Origin: a virus
DNA length: 58,407 nt
Direction: 5' to 3' (one strand)
Virus record (IMG/VR): IMGVR_UViG_3300045988_099599
Both the position numbers and the translations under genes were made by a program. The notes below the pieces were generated by a model. It was not told the origin of the DNA and searched no databases. It saw nothing but the letters and a program-made list of their open reading frames with translations. This document shows, piece by piece, positions 29,271 through 30,014 of this stretch (positions are counted from its first letter, which is position 1; each line of letters begins with the position of its first letter).

Positions 29271-29395
29271 ATGTCCACGGGAATCTGCAAGTCTGAAAAC
29301 AGTTTCCCGTGCCGCTACGGTTCTTTAGACACATCCGTCTGTAACTCTGAGAAAGTAACTCTTTTGGTGACTCCGCAGCTAAAACACCACTTTTT
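29271..29395 (-). ncRNA. Structured leader module A upstream of tRNA-like 1 (paralogous to 30360-30458)
   Basis: Shares GTGxTGxTTTTAGCTGC...GTAGCGGC plus a following hairpin and GGACAT with module B. The GCTGC/GTAGC helix is conserved. The second hairpin differs in sequence but still pairs. Confidence 0.4.
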
Positions 29396-29460
29396 ACATT
29401 TTTACTTGAAATAGGTACTACAAATACAAAATATTGCTTGAAATAAAGTTTTTTCAAACA

Positions 29461-30014
29461 CAGTCATGGTTTCCCATTATTCATCATAGTAGGAATCATA
29501 TTCAGCCAGTGTGACGATAAGTCTGAGCTTCCGGTTGCGACCCTTGGCTTCTTACCGCTGTCAAAGCACACACGGGATTAATACCCGTAAATTTCACGGT
29601 TCTTTCAGAATATTTTTACCTTAGTGAGACTATGCATCTCTCTCAAGAGAAATATCACATCTGCCATACCGCTACTTTAACAGATTTCTTGTGTTATACC
29701 CCGATTTCTCAGGTTCAAGGCAAATCAGCTTGTTTGAGTTTTCCAGCCGATCCGTGGTCTCTCACACCGCTCACCAAACTGGATTATTCCTGCACCGCAG
29801 GCGTCTATTCATCGCTGACCACAAGGATCCTGCTTTTGACCTCTCTATGATGATACACTGCAGGGCATTGTTGACGGGTTCCCGTCTTCTCCACCGGAAT
29901 CACTCCCGGTAGAAAGGATCGGTTGACCCAGTATCCCGAATCAACCTTACTTATTCACCGCTGCATCTCAGCAGGACTGAAAAATCCATCTTCACTGAGT
30001 TGACCATGTTTGAA
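29461..30014 (-). ncRNA. Candidate large structured non-coding RNA (ROOL/GOLLD-like context); boundaries approximate
   Basis: No credible ORF in an otherwise gene-dense genome. About 46% GC by hand count, with 60-nt windows at 55-57%, against roughly 40% in sampled coding lines. Many local hairpins. tRNA-like genes flank it on the same strand. Confidence 0.45.

Follow-up and report, generated by a model that had tools for sequence, protein, structure and literature searches.

The viral DNA IMGVR_UViG_3300045988_099599 from IMG/VR (58,407 nucleotides (nt), analysed over its whole length and called the window below) very probably carries a ROOL RNA gene (Rumen-Originating, Ornate, Large; Rfam family RF03087) on its minus strand at positions 29446–30023; we put the probability of this assignment at about 93%. 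Scanning the whole window with cmscan against all 4227 Rfam families gave a match to RF03087 over model positions 1–574 of 574 with 363.8 bits (E 1.6e-83). This score is 3.7 times the curated Rfam gathering score of 99.1 bits, and ROOL was the sole large-RNA match of the scan. The interval 29000–31200 was also rescanned permissively, accepting E of 1 or lower, and beyond ROOL it contained just tRNA matches and fragments at chance level. Other large-RNA families did not reach their thresholds in the Rfam scan or in the permissive rescan. The window RNA is a fresh copy of a known family and does not represent a new RNA class.

The Rfam envelope is 578 nt long and 562 nt lie between the ends of the closing helix P1, which falls within the family range of approximately 500–660 nt; the mean length of the family is 581 nt (PMC5737381). 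P1 is paired in 95.8% of the cells of an alignment of 80 sequences and contains five compensatory pairs. A 16-nt inverted repeat that was found independently (29451–29466 with 30001–30016) is the closing helix of ROOL. Inside the RNA, alignment columns ~377–470 correspond to a linker that cannot be aligned, and the flanks of this linker are invariant. The disordered linker inside the cage formed by the env-120 ROOL RNA (PMC12286853) is the counterpart of the linker found here.

A preliminary description, made from the DNA letters of the window, had drawn attention to 29271–30014 as an open reading frame (ORF)-free, locally G+C-rich and hairpin-dense region between two tRNA-like genes, and had proposed a large ornate RNA of the ROOL or GOLLD type on the tRNA strand, or equally a new class. 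Its ROOL alternative is borne out at full length, the GOLLD alternative is not, and a new class is ruled out by the end-to-end ROOL match. Regarding the extent, the proposed core (29461–30014) was nearly exact, but the last 175 nt of the region (29271–29445, 38.9% G+C) lie outside ROOL. The longest interval of the window lacking ORFs of ≥80 or ≥100 amino acids is 29415–31052 (1638 nt), which holds the region together with the tRNA array; within 29271–30014 there are short ORFs alone (31–111 amino acids), in mixed frames and on both strands. The G+C figures given earlier were close to ours: 45.9% for 29461–30014 and 43.7% for 29271–30014, compared to 40.5% for the window, with 60% in the top 60-nt window. 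It is important to note that this enrichment is modest, as 7% of the 578-nt windows elsewhere are equally G+C-rich. The two bracketing tRNA-like genes are also real and lie on the minus strand like ROOL.

Structure of the RNA is supported by comparison with its relatives. Fold energy of the ROOL segment is −192.6 kcal/mol, while dinucleotide shuffles have −158.7 ± 6.6 kcal/mol (z = −5.2), and none of 100 shuffles was as stable. A blastn search with the ROOL segment against 50,697 GenBank phage records gave no match and relatives were therefore sought with a ROOL-core motif. This motif matched 98 viral contigs, every one of which (98/98) has a ROOL homologue; 12 representatives scored 335–392 bits, all of them at full length and above the Rfam threshold. 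The window copy was aligned with 79 distinct homologues from viral contigs and the Rfam consensus structure was projected onto these 80 sequences. In the Rfam register 57 pairs are changed on both sides, as compared to 35.7 ± 2.6 in shuffles and 15–24 in slid controls. Counted by cells, 686 are changed on both sides (224 ± 22 in shuffles) and 74.2% of cells are standard pairs. P1 and two further helices appear unpaired if the cmscan register is taken as given; when covarying helices were sought blindly, these three turned out to be shifted by one position. With these three helices re-registered, the counts are 62 pairs (38.0 ± 2.9 in shuffles, 12–17 in slid controls) and 816 cells (236 ± 26 in shuffles), with 85.4% of cells paired. 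The re-registering used the same 80-sequence alignment, and the uncorrected test stands by itself. Canonical pairs in the window copy make up 76% in the raw register and 87% after the correction. Altogether, 17 of the 26 helices are paired in at least 89% of cells.

All five hairpins listed in the preliminary description are present at their coordinates within one base. They are helices 6, 7, 8, 14 and 21 of ROOL, are paired in 89–100% of cells and have 3–8 compensatory pairs each. Two of the checks which that description had proposed, a search with Rfam models and a test of covariation among homologues, gave a clear positive result, and a coding signal was absent. The ROOL fold is maintained by compensatory evolution and the RNA is non-coding. 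Two candidates for extra helices, with two covarying pairs each, were seen at ROOL positions 220–224/256–260 and 433–437/469–473 (ROOL position p is window coordinate 30024 − p). Three pseudoknots belong to the 2017 ROOL consensus (PMC5737381), and P10 and P13 are those of the env-120 structure (PMC12286853); our candidates are not tied to P10 or P13, and the Rfam model holds nested pairs only.

Four viral contigs are 94–97% identical to the window over many kilobases. Among the ROOL copies of these four near-identical phages 21.5% of linker columns vary and approximately 3% of core columns; 14 of the 29 varying columns are in the linker. The structured core evolves about seven times slower than the internal linker. 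Since the core is far less variable than the linker in such close relatives, it is under purifying selection in this lineage.

The env-120 ROOL, determined by cryo-electron microscopy (Kretsch et al. 2025, PDB 9MDS), is a protein-free, closed and hollow D4 homo-octamer about 280 Å across, which encloses its disordered linker (PMC12286853). The two sites of kissing loop B4 of this cage read GGUA/UACC in env-120, UGGC/GCCA in the Rfam consensus, UGAG/CUCA in the window and UGAGA/UCUCA in most relatives. Judging from these sequences, B4 appears to be kept in a fully compensatory way, by different yet complementary bases. In B1, three of the four env-120 pairs are retained, one of them via a flipped pair. 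Loop L18, responsible for B6, is a self-complementary GC which bridges the half-shells, and this GC is invariant in the window subfamily. The main inter-chain contacts thus appear to be retained in the window copy. By homology with env-120, the window RNA most likely forms a homo-octameric cage: eight ROOL copies would assemble by themselves, without protein, into a closed hollow particle of about 280 Å with the variable linker inside. The likeliest role of such a cage, at low confidence, would be to take up or sequester a macromolecule while the phage develops; enclosure or sequestration is a hypothesis of the authors of the literature. ROOL RNAs are known from phages as well as prophages, in many cases close to tRNA islands, are very stable and can equal 16S rRNA in abundance (PMC5737381, PMC5643018, PMC12286853); ROOL of L. 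salivarius is an abundant, stable and discrete transcript (PMC5643018).

Several observations weigh against a ROOL RNA that is intact, expressed and assembled like env-120. Helices 5, 9–11, 16 and 25 pair poorly in the subfamily even after re-registering; misalignment or non-canonical pairs may be the reason. Among close relatives, three of the eight variable pairs are broken in at least one relative and five stay canonical. The fourth B1 pair is lost and contacts B3 and B5 of env-120 could not be mapped onto the window copy. The mapping itself was made by hand at the level of motifs, using a supplementary sequence of 650 nt, about 9 bases short of 659. The 3' side of the window copy has a 66-nt spacer instead of an abutting tRNA, so that an abutting tRNA does not account for its 3' end. 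Promoter-like and terminator-like sites around the island of tRNA-like genes are not above chance (3 promoter-like sites, 4.0 expected). In addition, the sole reported ROOL knockout, in L. salivarius, had no growth phenotype (PMC5643018).

Part of this would be expected if the window carried a decaying ROOL, a relic that travels with the tRNA island and has lost its expression or its capacity for assembly. The broken pairs and the incomplete pairing in the raw cmscan register agree with it, as do the degenerate look of the adjoining tRNA-like genes and the loop equivalent to L18, which closes less well in the window copy than in relatives. We consider a relic very unlikely, however, because the score of the window copy is typical of its subfamily, the match is full length with nothing truncated, the pairing recovers once the register is corrected and every invariant subfamily motif is intact. 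Moreover, the slow change of the core is seen in four phages that differ by 3–6% elsewhere.

There is still less room for a mainly DNA-level element, such as a packaging site, an origin or a recombination hotspot, in which the hairpins would act in DNA. The region is situated at a module boundary, about 2.7 kb upstream of the large terminase gene, and the adjoining tRNA has been exchanged between near-identical phages, both of which would suit such an element. However, strand-specific G–U and U–G pairs are frequent in the covarying helices, pointing to RNA and not to cruciforms of duplex DNA. The long-range nested architecture agrees with the solved RNA structure, and ROOL is found outside phages as well, for example on the L. 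salivarius megaplasmid. We regard a DNA-level function as extremely unlikely. The same can be said of a large structured RNA that belongs to another or a new class (GOLLD, OLE, HEARO or an unclassified one) and has only a superficial likeness to ROOL. A phage setting beside tRNAs and a size of 0.55–0.75 kb are common to GOLLD and ROOL (PMC5737381), and a partial GOLLD match does exist at 29871–29911. This match reaches 15.4 bits where the threshold is 150, has an E of 0.33 and spans model positions 336–384, i.e. 49 of 416; OLE and HEARO have no match in 29000–31200 even at E of 1 or lower, and it is the ROOL-specific helices that covary. Finally, a protein-coding or small-peptide region overlooked due to its short ORFs (72 and 73 amino acids on the plus strand at 29632–29850 and 29691–29912, 31–62 amino acids on the minus strand) has a negligible probability, as no frame is open throughout the 80 homologues (minimum longest open run 21–37 amino acids), the three phases are equally variable (0.113, 0.115 and 0.105, with 78 variable columns each), indels are nearly all of 1 nt and the plus-strand ORFs oppose nearly all phage genes.

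Table 1. Features of the ROOL region in window coordinates, with what each rests on
Feature	Position	Strand	Basis or remark
ROOL RNA gene	29446..30023	-	Rfam envelope, 578 nt; cmscan, covariation, fold z-score
Probable mature ROOL, 562 nt	29453..30014	-	Presumed bounds at closing helix P1
P1 5' arm (UUCAAACAUGGUCA)	30001..30014	-	Closing helix, comparative pairing
P1 3' arm (UGACUGUGUUUGAA)	29453..29466	-	Closing helix, comparative pairing
Hairpin GGAU-UUUUCA-GUCC, loop is putative partner in kissing loop B1	29974..29987	-	Loop invariant
CUGAAAGAACCGUG, putative second B1 partner, 3' flank of linker	29595..29608	-	Hand mapping
Hairpin with loop GUGAGAG, putative partner in kissing loop B4	29756..29768	-	Loop invariant in 80 homologues
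Junction AACUCAAAC, putative second B4 partner	29732..29740	-	CUCA complementary to UGAG
Hairpin CCUGA-GAAA-UCGGG, putative counterpart of B2 A-minor donor	29700..29713	-	Stem covaries (helix 18); GAAA invariant
Loop GUCGCAA, putative counterpart of env-120 L18 (bridge B6)	29533..29543	-	GUCGC invariant in 80 homologues
Variable ROOL linker, ROOL positions 361–413	29611..29663	-	Only unalignable stretch of the alignment
tRNA-like gene, called Gly-CCC	30015..30091	-	ARAGORN; Rfam tRNA 47.3 bits; no encoded CCA
AU-rich spacer, not ROOL	29388..29445	-	Conserved in four close relatives only
Unclassified tRNA-leader element, ~117 nt	29271..29387	-	Directly followed by a tRNA-like gene
tRNA-like gene downstream of ROOL	29195..29270	-	Rfam tRNA 36.7 bits; enlarged anticodon loop

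The junction between ROOL and the tRNA-like gene on its 5' side is strict. In the window, the last base of the tRNA-like gene (30015) directly abuts the start of P1 (30014) with zero spacer. In 53 loci ARAGORN places the tRNA 3' end 6–9 nt inside Rfam model position 1, which is the start of P1, and 58 of the 64 distinct upstream flanks, about 90% of relatives, carry a T-arm signature. ARAGORN alone under-calls tRNAs adjacent to ROOL, and apparent gaps of 94–149 nt are mostly filled by the Rfam match or by the T-arm signature. The abutting tRNA is not always of the same kind (Trp, Asn, Lys, Met, Gly, Ile or Arg). Many relatives have a further tRNA whose start falls in a range from 7 nt before to 12 nt after the end of the ROOL model. 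That a tRNA ends exactly at the first ROOL helix in about 90% of relatives suggests co-transcription and release of ROOL by tRNA-processing enzymes.

According to the maturation pathway that we propose, ROOL and the tRNA-like genes around it would share one transcript, in the orientation of the phage genes. The 5' end of ROOL could be generated by the 3' cut of the abutting tRNA-like gene without CCA, in the way RNase Z acts on CCA-less precursors in Firmicutes. In the many relatives with a tRNA located a few bases past the closing helix, RNase P could make the 3' end of ROOL; for the window copy, trimming as far as P1 is the probable route to the 3' end. The near-universal zero-spacer junction makes this a concrete and testable model. 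Punctuation of transcripts by tRNAs is known from mitochondria, and MALAT1 and mascRNA are separated by RNase P and RNase Z. As in these systems, a tRNA or tRNA-like structure in the window directly abuts a long structured RNA and could define its end. In contrast, the tRNA-like gene of the window is on the 5' side of the long RNA, so that an RNase Z-type cut would be needed instead of an RNase P cut, and cleavage is only proposed for ROOL.

Some observations on transcription and upstream neighbours can be added. Terminator-like matches on the ROOL strand are mostly helices of ROOL or of the tRNA-like genes. A terminator-like hairpin followed by a U-run (30698–30722, minus strand) lies between tRNA-Ile and tRNA-Tyr of the island, whose two parts it might separate as distinct transcription units. 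Few relatives lack a tRNA fused to the 5' end of ROOL (L077, L071, L070, L065, L059 and L051). Five of them have in common an AU-rich sequence with CTTGAAAAAAC, some 90 nt upstream of ROOL, and this could be ROOL's own promoter. In the relative L031, a skipping-rope RNA (RF02924, 63.4 bits; 7136–7217, minus strand) is found just upstream of ROOL, 29 nt away.

The part of the initially described region that is not ROOL consists of two elements, a spacer and a leader. Promoter-like hexamers in the spacer (29388–29445) are no commoner than in shuffles. The leader, read towards the tRNA, is composed of box A (UUUUAGCUGCGGAGU; 29370–29387), a variable insert of ~11–98 nt across copies, box B (AAAGAACCGUAGC; 29311–29326) and a covarying hairpin (29276–29311), after which the tRNA starts immediately. 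Boxes A and B pair with each other. The window has a second copy (30360–30437, minus strand) in which this helix is altered in a compensatory manner, from GCUGCGG/CCGUAGC to GCUGCAA/UUGUAGC. Sequence of the hairpin is wholly different in five lineages and its pairing is always kept. There are 50 distinct copies of the leader in phage tRNA arrays; beyond the window it is found in L001–L098 and L113–L193 (for example L116, 4321–4471). Copies are mostly located 14–18 nt past the 3' end of ROOL, and seven lie between ordinary tRNAs in arrays that lack ROOL. We rejected the idea that 29271–29445 is a 3' extension of ROOL, since the conserved element occurs between tRNAs in ROOL-less arrays as well; it belongs to phage tRNA arrays and not to ROOL. 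No Rfam family matched the leader, even with an E cut-off of 1.

A 15-mer from the leader matched more than 119 viral contigs and was discarded as a marker, because 61 of the 84 new loci were chance matches without the second box, tRNAs or ROOL. A consistent outer helix could not be established for the leader: UUAGC/GCUAA fits most lineages and the window needs a different pairing. The element may be a tRNA-like three-way junction without a D-arm. Spacer and leader are 96–98% identical to those of the near-identical phages L093, L035 and L043, but the downstream tRNA differs: these three phages have tRNA-Gln(UUG) at the position where the window has an odd tRNA-like gene (29195–29270). The same leader followed by a different tRNA suggests that tRNAs are exchanged like cassettes at this element.

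ARAGORN and Rfam find seven tRNA-like genes within 1.7 kb on the ROOL strand. Four or five of them have non-canonical anticodon arms (29195–29270, 30015–30091, 30201–30275, 30279–30359 and 30459–30541, all on the minus strand). In the odd arms, 12, 13, 17 and 17 nt are aligned by Rfam to model stretches of 6–9 nt, and ARAGORN requires 'introns' of 3, 10 and 11 nt at odd positions. The gene at 29195–29270 is called a tRNA by ARAGORN only with a 3-nt insertion allowed, 30201–30275 is called by ARAGORN only, and in the irregular anticodon arm of 30015–30091 Rfam aligns 13 nt where its model has 7. Relatives likewise yield ARAGORN calls with 2- or 4-base anticodons. The only ordinary-looking members of the island are Ile-UAU (30833–30904) and Tyr-GUA (30610–30691).

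The degenerate tRNA-like genes and the recurrent leader hint that the island around ROOL may have a role other than decoding. One could imagine that ROOL, its 5'-fused tRNA, the degenerate tRNA-like genes and the leader make up a single functional module, in which the tRNA-like parts are not decoders but processing handles and possibly cargo or decoys enclosed or presented by the cage. We find this unlikely. If it were true, the decoys could act for example against host enzymes that cut anticodon loops of tRNAs, and the leader would be a previously undescribed tRNA-like fold lacking the D-arm.

The window is a phage or prophage of the siphovirus type, probably from gut Clostridia. Its genes include a large terminase, an SPP1-type portal, capsid protein E, an HNH endonuclease, a large serine recombinase and a tail lysozyme with a peptidoglycan-binding domain. 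Nearly all genes are on the minus strand, among them terminase, portal, capsid, tail lysozyme and HNH endonuclease, which thus have the orientation of ROOL. ROOL and the tRNA island sit between the block of DNA metabolism and HNH genes and the packaging genes that include terminase. Against GenBank phage records the structural genes have matches of just ~65%, to two gut phages. The nearest ROOL copies in bacterial genomes are those of an uncultured Dorea (82%), a Ruminococcaceae metagenome-assembled genome (80%) and Clostridium sp. AF27-2AA (79%), and further copies are found in Roseburia, Lachnospiraceae and Romboutsia. Since these nearest copies are in gut Clostridia, the host is probably a gut Lachnospiraceae member or a relative of it.

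Three further genes of the window should be mentioned. The large serine recombinase (38884–40227, minus strand; resolvase, recombinase and zinc-ribbon domains) has a central and not a terminal position in the element and is likely to be the integrase of a temperate phage. At the left edge, opposite to the phage genes, 30–827 (plus strand) encodes the C-terminal two-thirds of a Mutator-family (IS256-like) transposase, which is either an insertion sequence or host flank. An ORF of 111 amino acids starting with ATG (29079–29414, plus strand) overlaps the downstream tRNA-like gene and the leader against the orientation of the phage genes and is probably spurious.

ROOL was described in 2017 and its structure was solved in 2025, and an extra copy leaves the known kinds of RNA unchanged. 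What the window offers is a complete and compact phage genome whose close relatives differ mainly in the ROOL linker and the adjoining tRNA, which makes it a tractable setting. The most notable sidelights are the strict tRNA–ROOL junction, the unclassified leader and the island with non-canonical anticodon arms.

In comparison with known systems, the window RNA agrees with the ROOL family (Weinberg et al. 2017, PMC5737381; Cousin et al. 2017, PMC5643018) in its full-length match, its length close to the family mean, its nested multi-junction fold, the unalignable linker and the setting in a phage beside tRNAs. It differs from the ROOL RNAs known so far in representing a subfamily of gut-Clostridia phages that blastn did not find among GenBank phage records; none of the differences affects membership in the family. 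GOLLD (RF02032) is likewise a large phage RNA beside tRNA genes and assembles from RNA alone into a cage, a 14-mer that has a disordered linker inside, but its sequence and fold are unrelated to those of the window RNA and the partial match between them is at chance level. Putative counterparts of the inter-chain contacts B1, B2, B4 and B6 of the env-120 ROOL can be recognised in the window copy, whereas the bases of the kissing loops differ in a compensatory way and the linker is short (about 53 nt) in an RNA that is shorter than the 659 nt of env-120.

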